From: Alkalibacter saccharofermentans DSM 14828
GTDB lineage: Bacteria; Bacillota; Clostridia; Eubacteriales; Alkalibacteraceae
Length of the DNA stretch: 32,000 bases
Assembly (NCBI RefSeq): GCF_900128885.1
Contig: NZ_FQTU01000002.1
Location: 1,385 to 33,384, forward strand
Direction: 5' to 3'
The notes beneath the pieces were generated by a model. That model was not told the DNA's origin. It was given only the letters and a program-made list of their open reading frames with translations, and did not search any database. Position numbers and translations under genes: made by a program. Shown piece after piece: positions 1-9,766 of this stretch; position 1 is the first letter of the stretch; the number at the start of each line of letters is the position of its first letter.

Positions 1-3000
1 TCGTTTTTCCTTTCCCACTTTATAGTGATTTCCAAGTGGGTCAACTTGATATTTTTCTAAAGTTTTTAAAGTTTTTATACCTAAACTTTGTATTGTGTAT
101 GTATTATCATGATTAATAATTGTAATTACGCCACTATTAATTCCTGATTTAACATAATAAGCATGTATTTCTTTGCATATGTACTCTTTAGAGAGTGTTC
201 CCTTAATACTTATTGCAGATAGTTTCAATTCTTTTTTTCCTTCAATTCTAATCAAATCATTTGGGTATAATGAAAATATGAAATCTTTATCGTTCATTTC
301 TTTCCATTCCTTATAGGGTTTATGTGCAACTACCGCTTTACTAGGAAGTTCTTTTTTCATACGATCCGCAATATAAATCGGGATAAAATAGTATCCTTCA
401 CCTTCCACATGGAAAATGTCTATCCTTATCATGCTATCATTATATGCAACGCCTTTTCCATCATGCACATCGACTGTTAAAGATGCTTTTTCATAAACTT
501 TGACCTTCTTGACTACAGGTCCCTTTTCCCCATTTTTTGTAGGCTTATAGAATGGTTCTGAAAAAGCTTTCTTCCCATCATTATTATATTTCACCAATTG
601 TTCTTTTAATTCTTGGTACAGTTTTCGGTCACTGTTTGGATTGTAATAATTTTCTATCTCTCCATCTTTGTCTAGTTTCAATTTCTCCAATGGTCTTTTT
701 AGCAATATTAATCCTTCATCTTTTAGTTTTGGGCTAAAAATTGTCTCTTTGTGGGCAGCCCCTGTTATCTTTCTTTTTGGCATTCTTGATACAAATATCG
801 GTTTAATATTATCTTCTGTAAATTCTCCAATACTATTGAGAAATTTCATGGGATCATCCATCAACCTTATATCTAGTTCGTTTCGAAACCCTTCCCATGG
901 CATTGGAAATTTTTCTATAATTTCGCCTGTTTTTTTATCAACTACATGTTCATCTAGTTGAACATATCGTTTTTCTTTATAATCACAATGTCTTGACACT
1001 TTTTGTATCATCCCGTCAGATGTACACGCTACCACAAGTGCATCCACTGCATGATGAAGATCTCCATCTTCTCGAACTTTACTAATCCCCCAACGTTTTC
1101 TTAAATAACTTGTAACAGCTCCGTTTACAGCGGTTACTTTTTTCTTCTTGCCAGTATTATTTTCTGCAAACAGCAGGTAATCGTTTAAGTAATTGTACAT
1201 AAATCGAGAAACATGCTTCGTATCATTGAGATTTCTTTCCTTGAACCGCTTCCTGTCTTCTTCCGTGATATCTTCTTTAAGAAAATTCATTTTTTTATTT
1301 TTATCCCTAATGGTATTATTTACCCACACTTTAAACTTATCTGCCTTATCTCCTTTTAAGTAATGCAAAGGTAGCCTGTTTCCTTTTTGCCTGTTCTCAC
1401 TTGCTAAAACCACAACTTTATTGGCATAACTGTCATTGAACGAGATGCTGTATGGAATTATATGATCAATGTCCGCATAACCAACTTCAAATAGCCTATC
1501 TATTTGAATCTCTTTAAGTGAGTATGGGCATATGCCATCTTGCTGTTTCCAAAGCTTTAATTTCACAATATCTATTCCCGAGGGATATAGTACTCCTTGA
1601 TCACTTATTTCTTGCTTAATTCTTTCATTTTGAGCTTGATTTTCCTTCATCTCTTTTTCTATTCTATTTCTATCTGAGAAATCCTTCGCCATTTCTCTAG
1701 CCAACTCAATACCGATAAAAGTCGGACTTTCTCCATACTGTCTGATAATGCTATTAATTACTTTCCTAGTTTGAGCAATTGCCCTACGCACTACAGGGCT
1801 TGTAACTTCAGTAATTTCATCGATTTCTGCTGGCAGTAAAAGTTGCTTTTCTTTTCCGTCGTGGCCCTTAAAGTTATAATCTGCTTTTTCACAAGCTACA
1901 TTATATTTAAAGCCCTGTTCTAAAAATGGTATTATTTTATCTAAAGCTTTGGTGCTGAGATTTGCAAATTTGCTAAATCCTCCAACATGAAGCAGCAAAA
2001 CTTCTAGGTCCTTCCTGGATATGTTAAAATCATTGAGATAATCTGCTATCTTTTGATCTGTCTTGTAAACCGTAAAAGCATATCCAATCCCATTCAGTGC
2101 TTCAATACTATAATCGCATATACGGTTTTTTTCAATTTTATCCAGAGCCACTCTAACTTTATGGTAGTTTTTCAAGTAGTCAAATTTCGCGCTTTTTTCT
2201 ACATCGTTAATGGACTTGTTGCCATAATTTAGTGTTGAAAATAAAACTGATTCTGTGAACTTTAATTCTTTTCTGATTTTTGCGTACGTTAAAGCTGGAC
2301 TTTTAAAGGCCAACTCCTTAATAGCTCTTCTCTCTTCTCCAGTCAAAAATCTACTTTCTCCGTTTATGTTTACTCTGATATTGTTTATATTCTGTAATAA
2401 GTTGGCGTATTCAGCTGAAAATGCTGCTTTGGGAGCTCTCTTCTCTTTCTTTTCAAATCTGCACATACCAATCATCTTTTCAATCTGGTCCCCAGAATAA
2501 GGGCTTGGCAGTCCTGGACCATTATCAAATGACCGTTGTGTAAAAAGTATCTCAACGTACTTTGACTCAAACTCATCATTGAGTATTTCTGATCCATATT
2601 TTCTTTGACAATCAAAAATCATTTGTACTTCTTCCAAAACTAGATCTCTCCCTACCGTATGGGAATAATCATCGCTTTTGTTTCTTTTATGGTCCGCAAA
2701 TTTAGGATCTTTTAGAAGCATCTCACCAACAGTCCTATAGCCTTTTTCTAACATCAGTTTTTTATTTATTTCAACTGCTTTTAAAAGTTTACCCGATTCT
2801 TCCTCTGCTAGTTTTTCAGACTTTCTATTTGACTTAAACCCTCTGCGTTGAGCTAAGTGTATCAATAGTCGAGTGATTTCATCCTGATTAAGTAATCTAT
2901 CTAATGCTTCAACTCGTATCTCATATATATCTTTTAATTTTTTGTGACCAAACAAATTATTGAATTGGTCTTCAGTCAGTAAATCCTTGCTAAATATAAG

Positions 3001-3228
3001 TGCTCTAATTCTATCTAGTCGGTGTTTTTTCCTTCTAATTCGTCTTCTCGCACCCCTGGCTTCTCTTCGCGGCAACGCTAAAGATGCTCCATCTTTGGGG
3101 TTTTCAGCAGCATCAAATATTCTAACGCCCATATCAATAATTTTATAAGGTTCATCATTACTATCCAAATTCACTGTTGCCCATCCCACTGAAGTAATTC
3201 CAATATCCAATCCAATTTTATAATTCAT
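1..3228 (-). CDS. cas9: Cas9 endonuclease (compact, type II-C-like, about 1080 aa). The 3' end runs off the left window edge.
   Basis: Own translation of the reverse strand. ATG at 3228-3226 is preceded by GGGGTG (3240-3235), followed by 1076 sense codons to nt 1 with no stop, so it is absent from the closed-ORF track. Motifs: MNYKIGLDIGITSVGWA (RuvC-I, D8); Arg-rich bridge helix LPRREARGARRRIRRKKHRLDRIR; FIGIELAREM (RuvC-II, E508); DIDHIIPYSISFNDSYANKVVVLASENRQKGNRLP (HNH, H589 = nt 1464-1462, N612); DLHHAVDALVVA (RuvC-III, H726/D729). The C-terminal KYQVDPLGNHYKVGKEKR resembles the extreme C-terminus of NmeCas9, so only a few codons are probably missing. Confidence 0.95.
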   Translation of the reverse strand, partial: MNYKIGLDIGITSVGWATVNLDSNDEPYKIIDMGVRIFDAAENPKDGASLALPRREARGARRRIRRKKHRLDRIRALIFSKDLLTEDQFNNLFGHKKLKDIYEIRVEALDRLLNQDEITRLLIHLAQRRGFKSNRKSEKLAEEESGKLLKAVEINKKLMLEKGYRTVGEMLLKDPKFADHKRNKSDDYSHTVGRDLVLEEVQMIFDCQRKYGSEILNDEFESKYVEILFTQRSFDNGPGLPSPYSGDQIEKMIGMCRFEKKEKRAPKAAFSAEYANLLQNINNIRVNINGESRFLTGEERRAIKELAFKSPALTYAKIRKELKFTESVLFSTLNYGNKSINDVEKSAKFDYLKNYHKVRVALDKIEKNRICDYSIEALNGIGYAFTVYKTDQKIADYLNDFNISRKDLEVLLLHVGGFSKFANLSTKALDKIIPFLEQGFKYNVACEKADYNFKGHDGKEKQLLLPAEIDEITEVTSPVVRRAIAQTRKVINSIIRQYGESPTFIGIELAREMAKDFSDRNRIEKEMKENQAQNERIKQEISDQGVLYPSGIDIVKLKLWKQQDGICPYSLKEIQIDRLFEVGYADIDHIIPYSISFNDSYANKVVVLASENRQKGNRLPLHYLKGDKADKFKVWVNNTIRDKNKKMNFLKEDITEEDRKRFKERNLNDTKHVSRFMYNYLNDYLLFAENNTGKKKKVTAVNGAVTSYLRKRWGISKVREDGDLHHAVDALVVACTSDGMIQKVSRHCDYKEKRYVQLDEHVVDKKTGEIIEKFPMPWEGFRNELDIRLMDDPMKFLNSIGEFTEDNIKPIFVSRMPKRKITGAAHKETIFSPKLKDEGLILLKRPLEKLKLDKDGEIENYYNPNSDRKLYQELKEQLVKYNNDGKKAFSEPFYKPTKNGEKGPVVKKVKVYEKASLTVDVHDGKGVAYNDSMIRIDIFHVEGEGYYFIPIYIADRMKKELPSKAVVAHKPYKEWKEMNDKDFIFSLYPNDLIRIEGKKELKLSAISIKGTLSKEYICKEIHAYYVKSGINSGVITIINHDNTYTIQSLGIKTLKTLEKYQVDPLGNHYKVGKEKR

Positions 3229-3251
3229 TATGTTCACCCCTTTAATTAACA

Positions 3252-3280
3252 ATTATATACTTATATTTCCTTTTAATCAA
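3252..3280 (-). promoter_or_regulatory. Candidate sigma-A promoter of cas9
   Basis: On the minus strand: TTGATT (3280-3275), 17-nt spacer, TATAAT (3257-3252). It lies about 25 nt upstream of the cas9 RBS/ATG and immediately downstream of the tracrRNA terminator. Confidence 0.55.
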
Positions 3281-3284
3281 GTTT

Positions 3285-3322
3285 TTTGCATAAAGATAAC
3301 GCCTTGCATCATGCAAGGCGTT
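3285..3322 (-). terminator. Intrinsic terminator / 3' hairpin of the tracrRNA
   Basis: Perfect inverted repeat AACGCCTTGCA / TGCAAGGCGTT (3298-3322, 11-12 bp stem, 1-3 nt loop). On the minus strand it is followed by an interrupted U-tract, UAUCUUUAU. Confidence 0.6.
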
Positions 3323-3382
3323 AGAGCTTTTCGGTGTACTACCTTATTGTAGCAACCATATTAAGTTTTGGTATAATAGATT
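3287..3382 (-). ncRNA. tracrRNA: Candidate tracrRNA (about 96 nt), co-oriented with and upstream of cas9
   Basis: Minus-strand sequence: AAUCUAUUAUACCAAAACUUAAUAUGGUUGCUACAAUAAGGUAGUACACCGAAAAGCUCUAACGCCUUGCAUGAUGCAAGGCGUUAUCUUUAUGCA. It has a 36-37 nt anti-repeat ending GUUGCUACAAU, then an AAGG nexus, a GAAAAG..AACGC segment and a terminal GC-rich hairpin. This layout and the GUUGCUACAAUAAGG string match the NmeCas9 tracrRNA/sgRNA scaffold as I remember it. It has its own promoter and terminator. Both ends are predicted, not mapped. Confidence 0.75.
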
Positions 3383-3388
3383 AGTTAG

Positions 3389-3417
3389 ATGATACCACAT
3401 TTTTTCTTTCTTGTAAA
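3389..3417 (-). promoter_or_regulatory. Candidate promoter of the tracrRNA
   Basis: On the minus strand: TTTACA (3417-3412), 17-nt spacer, TGG-TATCAT (extended -10, 3394-3389). This predicts a start at A 3382/3381, exactly at the 5' edge of the anti-repeat. Confidence 0.55.
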
Positions 3418-3451
3418 CATTATTTAAACTTTTTTGAATTTAATTTACAGT

Positions 3452-4573
3452 CTACACCTCAAACGCTTTTGCCACATCTTTCAAACTTTTGATAATTTCT
3501 ATATGCTGTGGACAGCTCTTTTCACATTTTCCACATTCGATGCAATCAGAGGCTTTGCCAAACTTCTTAGTGTAATTTCCATAATAGACCTTTAAAATAT
3601 TAAACCCTTTGTCTTTAAATCGTTCCTTCGCATTGTACAGTGAAAAATAGTTTGGTATGGGGATGTTCATCGGGCAATCATCCACGCAATAATTACAAGC
3701 TGTACAAGGTACCGTTATCGATTCGTTGATTATCTTAACAGCTTTGTCGATAATATCGAGCTCTTCTTTGAAAAGAGGTTTAAATTCCTTCATATAGCCT
3801 GTATTATCCAACAGCTGTTCCATTGAAGACATTCCACTTAAAACGGTAATGACATTATCGAGACTGGCTGCATATCTTACTGCCCAGGATGCAACGCTCA
3901 TTTCCGAATCATGATTTTTGTATAGCTTTTCCACCTCTTCAGGAACCTGTGACAATATTCCACCTTTTACGGGCTCCATGATTATCACAGGTTTATTGTG
4001 CTTCATGGCGACCTCGTAGCATTTTCGAGACTGAATGCTTTCATTCTCCCAGTCAATATAATTGATCTGCAATTGTACGAAGTCCACTTCCGGGTTCTCG
4101 GTCAAAATTTCATCAAGCAAATCTGCTCTGTCGTGAAAGGAAAAACCTATTTTCTTTGCTTTGCCTTCCGCTTTTTTATTTTGAACAAATGAAAAAGCGT
4201 CAAATTTCTTAGCTAATTCATAATGACCTGCGCCTAGGTTATGTATCATATAATAGTCAAAATAATCTAGACCTGTCTTATCAAGCTGCTCATTAAATAC
4301 CTTCTCCAATTCTTCTTGCTCTTTAATAAGCATAATCGGGAGCTTATCTGCAACTGTATAAGCGTCTCTCGGATGGCGCTTTACCAACGACTCTCTCAAT
4401 GCATTCTCACTTACAAAGTTATGGTACATGTAAGCAGTATCGAAGTAATTAAAACCTCTTTCCAAGAAAGTATCTACCATTTTATTTAATTGTTCATAGT
4501 CGATGCTTGTTTGATCATCCTTATCTTTGATGGGTAACCTCATCCATCCAAATCCCAGTTTTTTTGTATCCAT
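3452..4573 (-). CDS. Aldo/keto reductase fused to a C-terminal 2x[4Fe-4S] ferredoxin domain (COG1453-like oxidoreductase)
   Basis: 373-aa ORF with RBS GAGGAG. The N-terminal AKR barrel has [13 protein letters not shown]. The C-terminus has [12 protein letters not shown] and [12 protein letters not shown] cluster motifs. Confidence 0.8.
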
Positions 4574-4613
4574 ATATATCGTCTCCTCTAGTTTTTTCTC
4601 AATCCATATATAT

Positions 4614-4644
4614 ACCTTACCACCTAGAGTACACTCTAAGTCAA
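4614..4644 (-). promoter_or_regulatory. MerR-type promoter/operator in front of the AKR-FeS gene
   Basis: On the minus strand: TTGACT (4644-4639), 19-nt spacer, TAAGGT (4619-4614). The overlong spacer contains the dyad TAGAGT-nn-ACTCTA (4625-4638). A 19-bp spacer with a central palindrome is the MerR-family operator architecture. Confidence 0.45.
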
Positions 4645-4983
4645 GATTTTTTTACAACTTGTTTTAAATATTACGTCATCTCATTCTTGATATGAGCGGT
4701 TTAATCTCTATGACAATTACCTAAGTTGATAAAAAACAAAATCACCTCTGATGACTGATATCTTACATGAGAATTGGTTTGATGCCACCAGCGCCAAAAA
4801 CTTAAAGTAGAGTGTTCAATTACGATCAAGATTCTCATAACAGATTTAATAGTCAAAGGAAAAGTCCCGCTAGACTTAGTTGCAGGATTTTCTATCTGGA
4901 TATTTGCAAAGACAAAATAAATGCCTTGGTAGATTGATGCAGATCTGTATGGCAATCTGAGTTTCTTATTTGCCCCTAGAGCA

Positions 4984-7428
4984 TTAAATGTTCTCTTTTT
5001 TAATGTTTTCCAACTGCTTTTTCAATTTTTTAATTTCACTTCTATTATTAAACCACGAGGATATTAAGTGAAACGCTCCTATAAAAAATTTCCCGTTCAC
5101 CATCTCTAAAACATCATCAATCATAGCCGCATCTACTTGCCCCACGGTCATTTTAGAAATCGCCCTAAAAGGCATATTATAAATATAGAGTATGTTTATA
5201 TTTGGCTCTCCCTTTTTTTCTGAACGATTTTTGATTCCGTCAAGAATTTTAAAAACAAGCCGACCTATCAATCCTTTAGCGTAATAAAGCTGAGAAATGG
5301 TGTCTTCACTTGTTAGCCTCTTAGTAGTATCCCAACTGGATTTTGGAATCGGGCGATTCAGCAATGATTCAAATTCTTCATCAGAAACGTTTCTCACATC
5401 TCCATTGTAGTAGGCTGATAACTTCACCACATCATAGGGACTATCAGCATTTGTTCCCACTAAATGCAAAGTTTCATTCAATGCTATATCCTCAGAAGAT
5501 GCACCAACCATAATCCGATATTCACCGGTTTCTAACTCAAATTTATGCGTTTTGATATTGTAATATCTGAAAGCTTTGTCATCAAGGACTATCTCTAATT
5601 CCTTTTTTTCTCCAGGTTCTAGATAAACTTTGCTGAACTCTTTAAGTTCTTTTGATGCCCTAAATATTTTACTGTCTTTTAACCCTACATATAGCTGCGC
5701 AATTTCTTCTCCTGGGATTTTCCCAACATTTTTTATTTTAAAGGCAACTTTATTATTTGAGCATACAAGGTCAGAATACTCAAACTTCGTATAGCTTAGT
5801 CCATATCCAAAAGGAAATCTAACTGGAATATCCTTTTTTTGATAGTATCTGTAGCCAACGTATATTCCTTCCCTGTATTCAGCAGTAAGCTCATTTCCCG
5901 GGAAATAATTATATGTAGGGGTATCCTCATGTTTAATAGGATACGTCTCGCTAAGTTTACCACTGGGGCAAATCCTGCCTGTAACGATATTGATAATTGC
6001 GCTTGCTCCCGCCTGTCCTGCCAAGCAGGAAAACAATAAAGACTTCGCATTGTCTAACCAAGGCATTTCAACGACAGAACCGGCGCTGAGGACAACTACA
6101 ATATTTTCATTAATATATCTTAACTCCGCCAACAGCTGAGTCTGATTTTCTCTAATCTTCATGTGTTTGCGATCTAAACCTTCCGATTCGTAGCTCTCGT
6201 CAAGCCCTAGATACAATAAGACAACATCTGCATTCCTAGCCAAGCTCAATGCCTCTTCTTTCATTCTTTCATTTGCCTTCCCGTATCGTTCGAATCCTTG
6301 GGCATAACCTATTAAATCCAGATGGCTATTTTCAATCATCTCCAAAGTGTCATCCATCTTAGTCGGGGTAACTTTGCTGGAGCCTGCCCCCTGATATCTG
6401 GGTATTACTGCAAAGTCTCCAATCACAGCTACTTTAATACCAGCTTTTAAGGGCAGCAACTTATCATTATTCTTTAATAGTACTATGGATCTTTCTGCTG
6501 CTATTCTTGCCATTTCATGGTGTGCATCCACGTCAAATTCATTTTCTCGTTTTTTCTGTTCTTTCTTGATTTTAAATACTGCACTGAGAAGCTCGTCAAC
6601 CCGCTCATCAAGTACTTCCATTGCGAGATTGCCATTCTTGACTGCTGCCACCACCTCTAAATCACTGACTCCCCCATTCGATGGCATCTCTAGATGGCTT
6701 CCTGCTTTAACAGCCTCTACATGGTCTTTACTTCCACCCCAATCTGTTACCACAAATCCTTCAAAGCCCCACTTATCAACCAATAGATCTTTCAACAAAT
6801 AAGAGCTCTCATTTGCATGAACGCCGTTAATCTTGTTGTATGCAGACATTATGGACATGGGTCTACCTTCTTTTACTGCTATTTCAAACCCTGTAAGATA
6901 TATCTCGTGTAAGGTTCTTTCATCCAAGACAGAATCGCTTGTCAGGCGCAGAAGCTCTTGGTTATTTGCTGCAAAGTGCTTGGGACAGGCTGCTATGCCT
7001 TTTGATTGAACTCCTTTTATTAACGCCGCTGCAAGCTTGCCCGATAGATAGGGATCCTCACTGAAGTATTCAAAATTTCTTCCACACAATGGGCTTCTTT
7101 TTATGTTAAGCCCTGGCCCAAGCCAAACGTCAACGTCATGTGATTTTGCTTCTTCACCCAATAGTTCCCCTACTTTTTCCACCAAGTTTTTGTCCCAACT
7201 GTTGGCTAATGTAGCTGCTGTGGGAAACGATGTAGAGGGATGCCCTGCATTTAGACCCAAATGGTCTGCGCTACCAATCTGCTTTCTGATTCCATGAGGA
7301 CCATCAGCCATTCTTAACGAAGGTATATTCAGTCTGTCTATAGATTTAGACATCCAAAAATCTTTTCCTGAAAGTAGTGAGGCTTTTTCTTCTAAAGTCA
7401 TATTATCTATTAAATTTTTGTATTTCAT
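4984..7428 (-). CDS. Glycoside hydrolase family 3 beta-glucosidase (BglX-like)
   Basis: Motifs: MTLEEKASLLSG at the N-terminus, GLNIKRSPLCGRNFEYFSEDP, the nucleophile region GFVVTDWGG, and a Fn3-like C-terminal domain. The track ORF starts at a TTG (7443). I place the start at ATG 7428-7426, 5 nt after GGAGG (7438-7434). Confidence 0.85.
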   Translation of the reverse strand: MKYKNLIDNMTLEEKASLLSGKDFWMSKSIDRLNIPSLRMADGPHGIRKQIGSADHLGLNAGHPSTSFPTAATLANSWDKNLVEKVGELLGEEAKSHDVDVWLGPGLNIKRSPLCGRNFEYFSEDPYLSGKLAAALIKGVQSKGIAACPKHFAANNQELLRLTSDSVLDERTLHEIYLTGFEIAVKEGRPMSIMSAYNKINGVHANESSYLLKDLLVDKWGFEGFVVTDWGGSKDHVEAVKAGSHLEMPSNGGVSDLEVVAAVKNGNLAMEVLDERVDELLSAVFKIKKEQKKRENEFDVDAHHEMARIAAERSIVLLKNNDKLLPLKAGIKVAVIGDFAVIPRYQGAGSSKVTPTKMDDTLEMIENSHLDLIGYAQGFERYGKANERMKEEALSLARNADVVLLYLGLDESYESEGLDRKHMKIRENQTQLLAELRYINENIVVVLSAGSVVEMPWLDNAKSLLFSCLAGQAGASAIINIVTGRICPSGKLSETYPIKHEDTPTYNYFPGNELTAEYREGIYVGYRYYQKKDIPVRFPFGYGLSYTKFEYSDLVCSNNKVAFKIKNVGKIPGEEIAQLYVGLKDSKIFRASKELKEFSKVYLEPGEKKELEIVLDDKAFRYYNIKTHKFELETGEYRIMVGASSEDIALNETLHLVGTNADSPYDVVKLSAYYNGDVRNVSDEEFESLLNRPIPKSSWDTTKRLTSEDTISQLYYAKGLIGRLVFKILDGIKNRSEKKGEPNINILYIYNMPFRAISKMTVGQVDAAMIDDVLEMVNGKFFIGAFHLISSWFNNRSEIKKLKKQLENIKKENI

Positions 7429-7681
7429 TACAACCTCCGCCAACTGTTATCTTGCACTGGTTTTATTATTTATATCCTTATAGAATTAATCTTACCAGTA
7501 TAAAAGAGCTTTCTGCAGATCAACCACAAAAAGCTTCTAAATTAAGTGCAATGTAATCAATTAGTTTTATATCTTACGAAGCAACGGTATCAATGTTTAA
7601 GCCGATAACTGTTATTTCCCATGATTAATTATGATTAAGCATATGTCCATTTGCTTTTATTTTATTTCACTCAAGTTTTTT

Positions 7682-8902
7682 CTATAGTCCTCTGCGCCTT
7701 GGCTTTAGCACCTTTGGCTTATTTCCCCATGTGTCAACATCCAAATAACCGTATTTAGCCCTTAAGTGGGTATTTACCTGAAGCTCACATCCGGTTTTAG
7801 TCTCACATTTTTTACATTCAAAACACTGCATGGATTCAAAGCCCCGGGTAAAAGGACATACTGCGATGCAGTTTGCACAACTTGCTCCATTTGTCTGCCA
7901 AAGTCTCAGGCACTTTTCTGCTGATATGTACCATTTTTTTATTCCAGAGTTGTTATTATCACATATCCCATCGTAGCTTTGCTCACCAAAGCTAATAGCA
8001 CTGGACGGACAATGCTCTGCACATAAATGGCAGTTATCACAAAATTCCGGTATCCCAAAGTCTATTGCATGGTCATTTTCAAGGGGCATATCTGTAAGTA
8101 CCTTCATCAGCCTGACATTCGGCCCGAACTCAGGTGTTATAAGGAGTCCCAGTCTACCCAACTGACCTAGCCCTGCCTCAACAGCCAAGGGTATGCTAAG
8201 TGCAGTATCATTCATGCAAGGGATTGCCTGGTATCCCAAACCCCTAATATACTCCGCAAGGGATACCGCCGTGATACCCATTCTGGAATAACCAAGAGAT
8301 GTAGCGGTGCTGGCATCTACCAAAGGTGATGTTTCTATCATTTCGTCATCCATGGCAACGGCCATTACTATGGCTTTGTTTACCTTCCTAGGTATTAAGA
8401 AGGCATCTTCCGTCTCTTGGGGGGAGCCTTCATCTACAATCTCAAAGGACTTGAATAGATCTTTTGAATAGACCCACTTGGGATCAAGACTGGCAATTCC
8501 CACTAGATCAGCTCCATATAAAACTGCTGCTTTTTTCACCATATTTGATAATTCATTGCTTGGCATATTGACGGGATGATTGGCAAGCATATCCGGCACA
8601 AACAGGGGACTCCATTTTAAGAATTGAAAATTCGGAAATCCGTACTCTCCTATAAGCAAGTTGAGTGCATTTGCCCCTAAGTCAAGAGCATTGTCTTCTT
8701 GCCTTCTTCCTTCTTCGCCGCTCATCATTCTTCTGACCATGTTTTCCATCATTTTGTTCATCCAGTGATTGTAACCGATTTCTCCCGCATCCTGAAAACT
8801 CACGGTCACAAATGCCTGCCTGGTAACAGGAAATCTTTCGTACACACCTTCTTTTATATCGATTGGACTTTCGCTTTTTTTCATCTCTTTTCTTGGTATC
8901 AT
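7682..8902 (-). CDS. Reductive-dehalogenase-like (RdhA/QueG superfamily) corrinoid/Fe-S protein. It has no Tat signal.
   Basis: 406 aa with RBS GGGGTGA. Motifs: AGLGQLGRLGLLITPEFGPNVRL, CDNCHLCAEHCP (CxxCxxCxxxCP) and CANCIAVCPF (CxxCxxxCP), as in RdhA and epoxyqueuosine reductase. The N-terminus MIPRKEMKKSESPIDIK has no RRxFLK twin-arginine motif. There is an extra C-terminal CFECKKCETKTGC motif. Confidence 0.65.
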   Translation of the reverse strand: MIPRKEMKKSESPIDIKEGVYERFPVTRQAFVTVSFQDAGEIGYNHWMNKMMENMVRRMMSGEEGRRQEDNALDLGANALNLLIGEYGFPNFQFLKWSPLFVPDMLANHPVNMPSNELSNMVKKAAVLYGADLVGIASLDPKWVYSKDLFKSFEIVDEGSPQETEDAFLIPRKVNKAIVMAVAMDDEMIETSPLVDASTATSLGYSRMGITAVSLAEYIRGLGYQAIPCMNDTALSIPLAVEAGLGQLGRLGLLITPEFGPNVRLMKVLTDMPLENDHAIDFGIPEFCDNCHLCAEHCPSSAISFGEQSYDGICDNNNSGIKKWYISAEKCLRLWQTNGASCANCIAVCPFTRGFESMQCFECKKCETKTGCELQVNTHLRAKYGYLDVDTWGNKPKVLKPRRRGL

Positions 8903-9082: not shown

Positions 9083-9766
9083 ATGAAAAAGATATCCGCT
9101 GCAGATAAGATTTATCAGGCTGCCAAAAGTTTGTTTTACGAGTCAGGTTATTACGGAACTACTACACGGGATATTACTACAAAATCTTCAACAAATCTGG
9201 GTTTGATTAAATATTACTTTGACAGTAAAAAAGTACTTGCTTACAAAATGATAAGCGAAATTTTTGATGAACTTTTGGGTTCTTTAAACAAATATATCAA
9301 AGCAGATGAAGATCCCTTGTTCTACGCCATGGTGTATACCCATGTATTCATGAGCATGCTCTTCAGTGACGAAAAGGTGGAATCGTTTATAGTAGAGTCT
9401 TTTTCAGATGAGATAATGGAAGAAATTGAGGATGCCTTCTACAGATCTTATCAGTACGACCTCAATTTAAAGATCTTGGAAACTCACGCCTTTTCCCCTG
9501 AGTACAATACGCATCAAACGATACAACTAAACCTATTTTCCTTTCACAATGCAATTAAATCCATCGGAAGGATGCGCCAAAGGGGCCGTATGGATATTAA
9601 CAACGATCAATTCAGGCTTTATATTTTTAAATTGATACTTTTCGGACTGGGCATAAACTTGGATGACGAACAAGAGAGAATGAAGGGTTCTTTTGATCTT
9701 AGCAACAAAATAATAAATGACAACGACCGTCTGAAGATTCCTAGTAAGATTTTTCTAGATGCTTAA
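9083..9766 (+). CDS. TetR/AcrR-family transcriptional regulator
   Basis: 227 aa. The N-terminal HTH region IYQAAKSLFYESGYYGTTTRDITTKSSTNLGLIKYYFDSKK is typical TetR_N. The gene is divergent from the RdhA-like gene. Confidence 0.8.
   Translation: MKKISAADKIYQAAKSLFYESGYYGTTTRDITTKSSTNLGLIKYYFDSKKVLAYKMISEIFDELLGSLNKYIKADEDPLFYAMVYTHVFMSMLFSDEKVESFIVESFSDEIMEEIEDAFYRSYQYDLNLKILETHAFSPEYNTHQTIQLNLFSFHNAIKSIGRMRQRGRMDINNDQFRLYIFKLILFGLGINLDDEQERMKGSFDLSNKIINDNDRLKIPSKIFLDA

Follow-up and report, generated by a model that had tools for sequence, protein, structure and literature searches.

In the 32,000-nt stretch of Alkalibacter saccharofermentans DNA analysed here (hereafter the window), the DNA directly upstream of cas9 very probably encodes a tracrRNA of about 93 nt as a stand-alone gene of a type II-C CRISPR-Cas9 locus. 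On the sequence evidence we assign a probability of roughly 0.93 to this reading, which places the gene on the minus strand from position 3382 to about 3290. A tracrRNA is the helper RNA that is needed by every Cas9. In the proposed mechanism, the tracrRNA would be transcribed from its own extended -10 promoter and would end at a 12-bp hairpin. Its first 37 nt, the anti-repeat, would pair with the 36-nt repeat portion of the crRNA. The source of the crRNA would be an off-window array on the far side of cas1-cas2, transcribed toward cas2 and from the opposite strand to cas9. Predicted irregularities of the duplex are a 2-nt internal mismatch, which is conserved, a single bulge on the tracr side and a number of G·U pairs. 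Cas9 would bind a handle made up of the AA-GGUAGUACACC nexus, the GAAAAGCUCU linker, which is near-invariant, and the terminal hairpin, and the dual RNA would guide Cas9 to DNA. We infer transcription, processing and Cas9 binding, and also that the array of the window strain shares its repeat with the array of the close relative described below.

Organization of the predicted tracrRNA gene

The tracrRNA element is located on the cas9 strand and has an aldo-keto-reductase/ferredoxin (AKR) gene on its 5' side. The gap from the AKR stop (3452) to the cas9 ATG (3228) is 223 nt, and the element ends about 60 nt 5' of the cas9 start codon. An earlier note on this DNA had listed a promoter, start, anti-repeat, AAGG, GAAAAG, AACGC, hairpin and U-rich tail on the minus strand, and all of these features were recovered where it had placed them (Table 1).

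Table 1. Positions of the predicted tracrRNA gene, its parts and cas9 in the window.
Feature	Position	Strand	Basis
cas9, type II-C size, first 1076 codons	1..3228	-	translation; TIGR01865 821 bits
cas9 promoter TTGATT-17-TATAAT, 3' of tracrRNA terminator	3252..3280	-	promoter scan
U-rich tail UCUUUAUGC, starting UCUUUAU (DNA TCTTTAT)	3288..3296	-	sequence
Terminal hairpin, perfect 12 bp, 3-nt loop	3297..3323	-	scan, fold, family alignment
AACGC	3322-3318	-	sequence
Linker GAAAAGCUC (DNA GAAAAGCTC)	3324..3332	-	with U3323, the first base of the hairpin, gives GAAAAGCUCU
GAAAAG	3332-3327	-	sequence, within linker
AA linker and nexus-like mini-hairpin GGU-AGUAC-ACC	3333..3345	-	AA, then GGTAGTACACC at 3343-3333
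AAGG junction	3345-3342	-	sequence
Anti-repeat, 37 nt, DNA AATCTATTATACCAAAACTTAATATGGTTGCTACAAT, RNA AAUCUAUUAUACCAAAACUUAAUAUGGUUGCUACAAU	3346..3382	-	pairs with L146/L147 repeat
Predicted transcription start A3382/A3381	3381..3382	-	promoter geometry; 7-8 nt past -10 box
Extended -10 box TGgTATCAT	3389..3397	-	10/12 score with TG motif; 17-nt spacer from -35
-35 box TTTACA	3412..3417	-	promoter scan; same anti-repeat distance in homologues

Consensus scans placed a promoter and an intrinsic terminator of the element's own at the sequence level, and the promoter boxes, hairpin and U-tract were conserved in homologues. The promoter scan returned five promoter-like sites in 700 nt where 2.7 were expected, and hence the match to the tracrRNA promoter is weak evidence when taken alone. 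The terminal hairpin was the sole terminator-like site found by the scan, with 0.5 expected. Furthermore, the 101-nt RNA folded with a free energy of -28.8 kcal/mol (z = -5.2), and none of 200 shuffled sequences was as stable. The hairpin is predicted to act as an intrinsic terminator, and probably also as a 3' hairpin bound by Cas9.

The tail UCUUUAUGC of the window was weaker than the tail UCUUUUUU of most homologues. Since no more than about 70 nt separate the hairpin from the downstream cas9 ATG, and the hairpin of the window strain has a weak U-tail, some read-through into cas9 is plausible. Both features would also suit an element that works chiefly in cis, as a leader or attenuator of the cas9 mRNA whose hairpin controls read-through, and not as a trans-acting RNA. 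We consider such an attenuator very unlikely, because it leaves 36 nt of repeat complementarity unexplained and because a separate promoter (TTGATT-17-TATAAT) is present between the hairpin and cas9. Owing to the position of this promoter, the tracrRNA unit and cas9 look like separate transcription units, and the homologous locus L004 has an equivalent TATAAT box. Minor read-through into cas9 is compatible with a tracrRNA.

In the minimum free energy structure of the free RNA, CUAC at the end of the anti-repeat (3349-3352) was paired with GUAG of the nexus (3339-3342). This pairing was kept in most of 30 homologues, with one compensatory change and several wobbles. It might represent a closed form of the unbound tracrRNA, which could keep the free RNA closed until crRNA is available, or it might be only a by-product of the repeat-like sequence. 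A long-form, self-targeting tracrRNA as in S. pyogenes was also considered and was rejected, as there is no repeat-like segment between the AKR stop and position 3382.

An Rfam scan of positions 1-8000 (E ≤ 10) gave two chance matches only, neither of them within the tracrRNA element. The curated families of Rfam include a streptococcal-type tracrRNA family. As tracrRNAs are too diverse for a single covariance model, the non-match is no argument against the proposed identity.

Cognate repeat from a near-identical relative

CRISPR-like tandem repeats were absent from the 32-kb window, as cas9 runs off the window start, and the rest of the locus (cas1, cas2, array) would be situated on the far side of position 1. 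In the protein collection, the nearest match to the window Cas9 was P0001 (1080 aa), with 97% identity. It is located on three contigs (L001-L003) with the same neighbouring genes as the window, and the tracr region of these contigs showed two differences from the window, at 3361 (A/G) and at 3310 in the hairpin loop. All three contigs end in or just past cas1. A Cas9-based locus search of genome_contigs and metagenome_contigs recovered no relatives; P0001 contains five of the six search peptides, which implies that these two collections lack this species. A look-up of the window AKR protein, aimed past the window start, gave a 6-kb Logan contig (L005) that ended inside cas9, as well as a match in a second contig of 50-200 kb. 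Searching with Cas1 found the Cas1 of this species on L002 only, and that contig ends just after cas1. A repeat-pattern scan of metagenome_contigs yielded 94 single matches, approximately the estimated chance level, and no array.

A query with the Cas2 of Alkalibacter mobilis led to P0253, which is encoded on the contigs L146 and L147. L147 contains the C-terminal half of cas9, followed by cas1, cas2 and an array; it was 100% identical to L001-L003 over about 2.5 kb and 97.2% identical to the window cas9 at the DNA level. L146, from a sample shared with L002, contains cas2 and 26 repeat copies with a period of 66 nt. In crRNA sense, the 36-nt repeat of both arrays is GTTGTAGTTCCCATGTAAGTTTTGGTATAGTAGATT (also given as GUUGUAGUUCCCAUGUAAGUUUUGGUAUAGUAGAUU). 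On the cas9 strand it reads AATCTACTATACCAAAACTTACATGGGAACTACAAC and resembles the anti-repeat itself, so that the crRNA must come from the strand opposite cas9. The earlier note had expected a repeat close to ATTGTAGCAACCATATTAAGTTTTGGTATAATAGAT. Its expectation was near the mark but inexact, with seven aligned differences from GTTGTAGTTCCCATGTAAGTTTTGGTATAGTAGATT (involving G1, T8, the UC/UU mismatch at 9-10, the 1-nt tracr bulge and a G·U wobble), and the repeat of the relative is one base longer at its 3' end.

The same note had made its tracrRNA reading depend on complementarity between positions 3346-3382 and the repeats of the associated array. Pairing was calculated with the array of the strain with a 97.2% identical cas9 (L147/L146), as the array of the window strain lies outside the window. 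The repeats of this relative were complementary to 3382-3346 along the whole 36-nt repeat (-40.9 kcal/mol), with the duplex beginning at the predicted +1 (3382), which upholds the tracrRNA identity. Shuffled anti-repeats reached -9.5 ± 2.8 kcal/mol, and the best of them -21.4 kcal/mol. When both strands of the 32-kb window were scanned, the best pairing sites occurred only at 3374-3395 on the minus strand, and no site in the window paired better than the anti-repeat. Like the duplexes of other type II-C systems, this one is imperfect: repeat positions 9-10 form a UC/UU internal mismatch, one tracr base is bulged out, and several of the pairs are G·U. Position 3361, the only anti-repeat difference between the window and L001, keeps its pair as either U-A or U·G.

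Anti-repeats tracked the repeats of their own loci. Among 22 loci with both a tracr element and an array, cognate duplexes had a mean energy of -42.5 kcal/mol, versus -32.2 kcal/mol for non-cognate duplexes, and the divergent lineages L004, L020, L027 and L049 each ranked their own repeat first. The variants followed in this way include, for example, TATATC versus TATACC, TATAAC, CTATAA and ATTCC.

Features of the arrays

The arrays of L146 and L147 had most spacers in common and in the same order. They differed in the cas2-proximal spacer (L146 649-678 versus L147 3089-3118), and one internal spacer of L146 was absent from L147. Because of the difference at the cas2-proximal spacer, new spacers seem to be added next to cas2, even though transcription of the crRNAs has to run toward cas2. 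A mismatch between predicted and measured array polarity is likewise known from Nme and Cje (PMC3737331). At the cas-distal end of the array, degenerate terminal repeats were found in L146 (at about 2331-2366) and in the related locus L013 (11702-11737). The degenerate unit of L013 runs into ATAAAGTAGTTCAC, a look-alike of the tracr junction to which the covariance model gave no score. A comparison of the L146 spacers with 50,697 phage records produced matches only at E = 0.04-0.5, and thus neither a protospacer nor PAM information.

Every repeat of L146 (613-2299) and L147 (3031-3657) contains, in crRNA sense and 5 nt from its 3' end, the extended -10 motif TGGTATAGT, and most repeats of the related family end in TGGTATAAT. 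Repeat-embedded promoters have been described for some type II-C systems, among them Nme, Cje and Cc. The motif suggests that the repeats of L146 and L147 embed crRNA promoters as well, and the crRNAs may start inside each spacer.

Conservation and covariation in homologues

A homologous element was present upstream of cas9, on the same strand, in 12 of the 12 loci that were fetched via Cas9 homologues. These loci include A. mobilis (69% Cas9 identity) and metagenomic relatives at 55-60%. L001, L006, L008, L009, L011, L012 and L013 shared the -35 box TTTACA at an unchanged distance from the anti-repeat, as did L004 with TTAACA, and the homologues had TGnTAT... equivalents of the -10 box. When species-representative genomes were searched with the core AAGGTNNNANACCGAAAAGCTCT, 38 loci were retrieved, comprising 33 true homologues and five chance matches. 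The genomes with true homologues were mostly Clostridia and Negativicutes (Eubacterium, Phascolarctobacterium, Oscillospiraceae, Lachnospiraceae, Faecalibacterium and others). Hence, the 3' module is kept in at least 33 species-representative genomes, with Cas9s that have diverged to about 55% identity.

Covariation was calculated from 30 distinct sequences. In the terminal hairpin, compensatory changes were found in nine of the 11 modelled pairs, with 99% of the cells paired. For the 3' module as a whole, 98.3% of the cells were paired and 10 pairs had changed on both sides, which was matched by none of 500 shuffles. The covariation score was 0.425; shuffles scored 0.160, and the slid controls no higher than 0.099. 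The nexus stem GGU/ACC was paired in all 30 sequences, with a variable loop, and covariation of this mini-hairpin amounts to one compensatory change, from G-C to A-U in L009. The linker ACCGAAAAGCUCU was identical in 29 of the 30 aligned sequences, the remaining one (L009) having ACUGAAAAGCUAU. Its AAAG may pair with the CUUU after the hairpin as a lower stem, at positions that were invariant. A covariance model of the 3' part, with the window sequence in its training set, matched the window once, at 3288-3355 on the minus strand (83.7 bits). According to this model, there was no second tracr copy in the window or beside the L146 and L147 arrays.

The anti-repeat is in effect a diverged copy of the repeat, and an origin of tracrRNAs from degenerate repeats was proposed by Chylinski 2013 (PMC3737331). 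The element could therefore be a silent relic, a degenerate orphan CRISPR repeat upstream of cas9 that is not transcribed, and degenerate terminal repeats do occur in related loci (L013). Such a relic would not co-vary with its cognate repeat. Moreover, the promoter at a fixed distance, the near-invariant 13-nt linker and the covarying hairpin were maintained across the 33 species-representative genomes, with Cas9s diverged to about 55%, and we regard the relic as extremely improbable.

The tracr gene directly adjoins an array in L015 and L026, with the crRNA sense on the same strand. In tracr-strand positions, the array of L015 spans 2237-2567 and its tracr core lies at 2778; the tracr core of L026 lies at 7559 and its array spans 7683-7947. 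These two loci imply that locus architecture varies within the tracr family.

Strand of the predicted tracrRNA

A U-tract follows the hairpin on the minus strand only. For the window lineage, the duplex in the proposed orientation had an energy of -41.1 kcal/mol versus -33.0 kcal/mol for the opposite strands, and the proposed orientation was the better one in 19 of 24 pairs. To first order, complementarity is symmetric, and a functional RNA could also lie on the plus strand and pair with crRNAs transcribed in the direction of the cas genes. The opposite-strand duplex was computed as equally or more stable in the other five pairs, and a weak promoter-like site occurs on the plus strand at 3233-3261. 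In a plus-strand RNA, however, the hairpin would precede the anti-repeat and would have no U-tract after it, and the G·U pairs of the hairpin (23 cells) and of the duplex would become A·C mismatches. The conserved -35 and -10 boxes are on the minus strand, and the plus-strand duplex is 8 kcal/mol weaker for the window lineage. We find a plus-strand RNA hardly credible; promoter, U-tract, G·U pairs and pairing energy together favour a tracrRNA on the minus strand.

This arrangement agrees with earlier work. Anti-repeats are mostly located upstream of cas9 in type II-A and II-C loci (Chylinski 2013, PMC3737331), and N. meningitidis and C. jejuni transcribe their arrays in the direction opposite to the cas genes (PMC3737331). 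In C. cellulolyticum, the array is also opposite to the cas genes and each repeat ends in an extended -10-like motif (PMC7038990).

cas9 and flanking genes

Of the cas operon, only cas9 lies inside the window, and the window edge removes roughly its last four codons. As a guideline for assignment to type II-C, we used a minimal cas9-cas1-cas2 operon lacking csn2 and cas4, together with a Cas9 size of about 1000-1100 aa. In L147 and L004, cas9, cas1 and cas2 are followed by the array, and P0001 has 1080 aa. The window Cas9 matched ThermoCas9 (9AR4), AtCas9 (21DZ) and GeoCas9 (8JTJ, 8UZA) over its full length with approximately 900-924 bits, and Nme1Cas9 with 665 bits. By these sequence scores, the group of ThermoCas9, GeoCas9 and AtCas9 is nearer to the window Cas9 than NmeCas9 is. 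CcCas9, the other clostridial enzyme considered below, is a different and smaller orthologue than the window Cas9.

Several genes further upstream were also noted. A GH3-type glycosidase gene (819 aa, NF041610-like; 4984-7443, minus strand) lies between the AKR/ferredoxin gene and a reductive dehalogenase homologue (7682-8902, minus strand; TIGR02486, 202 bits). In the 97% relative, AKR and dehalogenase are direct neighbours (L001 6236-8700), which represents a gene-sized indel between close strains. A TetR-family regulator gene (9083-9766, plus strand) is divergent from the adjoining reductive dehalogenase gene. The presence of the dehalogenase and TetR genes suggests an organohalide-related lifestyle of the host.

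Implications and comparison with known systems

The analysis defines the guide-RNA parts of a 1080-aa type II-C Cas9 that is uncharacterised and comes from an Alkalibacter-related anaerobe with a reductive dehalogenase gene in its genome. These parts are the tracrRNA boundaries, the predicted crRNA polarity and the geometry of the imperfect duplex, with the cognate repeat supplied from the array of a relative. These parts suffice for the design of an sgRNA and a test of the enzyme. A conserved short tracrRNA module is furthermore documented in many gut and anaerobic Firmicutes. Our understanding of how type II systems function is unchanged.

Tentatively, the 3' module, with its 3-bp nexus, linker ACCGAAAAGCUCU and single hairpin, may be a distinct and unusually compact type II-C scaffold, but we hold this to be rather doubtful. 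The linker string (ACCGAAAAGCTCT/ACCGAAAAGCUCU) was not found in the main texts of the literature searched. If the module is indeed distinct and uncharacterised, it would permit an sgRNA as short as about 100 nt, which may be orthogonal to those of Nme and Geo.

The earlier note had called the anti-repeat and nexus Neisseria-like, on the grounds that a junction string and the subsequent spacing of GAAAAG and AACGC are shared with NmeCas9. The junction string GTTGCTACAATAAGG is indeed common to the Nme1Cas9 sgRNA (PMC6594998), and the two scaffolds have an identical 15-nt junction, GUUGCUACAAUAAGG. The likeness in spacing did not hold: AAGG and GAAAAG are separated by 6 nt in Nme and 9 nt in the window, and GAAAAG and AACGC by 9 nt in Nme and 4 nt in the window. 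The label thus applies to the 15-nt junction only, as GAAAAG is part of the linker here and not the tetraloop of Nme stem-loop 1. By inspection alone, GCUCU directly precedes the terminal hairpin in both RNAs and offers a better positional match. The repeats are alike as well: both have a 5' end of the type GUUGUAGYUCCC, a UC/UU mismatch inside the duplex and, toward the 3' end, an extended -10-like motif. In contrast, stem-loop 1 of Nme has 8 bp and a GAAA tetraloop and precedes a long stem-loop 2, whereas the predicted window tracrRNA combines a 3-bp nexus (5-nt loop) with the single-stranded linker GAAAAGCUCU and a lone hairpin of 12 bp. Set against the Nme1 sgRNA as printed, the window tracrRNA therefore differs from an Nme-type scaffold in stem-loop 1, stem-loop 2 and spacing.

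The GeoCas9 scaffold (PMC12514136) has GGUUACUAUGAUAAGG in common with family members such as L012 and L013. It differs in its long 3' region with multiple hairpins (GGGCUUUCUGCCUAAGGCAGACUGACCCGCGGCG...), whereas the window family is much shorter and has a single hairpin. The CcCas9 locus (PMC7038990) resembles the window system as a type II-C locus of Clostridia, with an array that would be read opposite to the cas genes and an extended -10-like repeat end. With the tracrRNAs of type II-C as a class (PMC3737331), the window element shares a position upstream of cas9 and on the same strand, a promoter and terminator of its own and imperfect anti-repeat pairing, together with an array predicted to be read opposite to the cas genes and the minimal cas9-cas1-cas2 set seen in L147 and L004. 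There is no categorical difference from this class, and the window element is a lineage-specific sequence variant of it.
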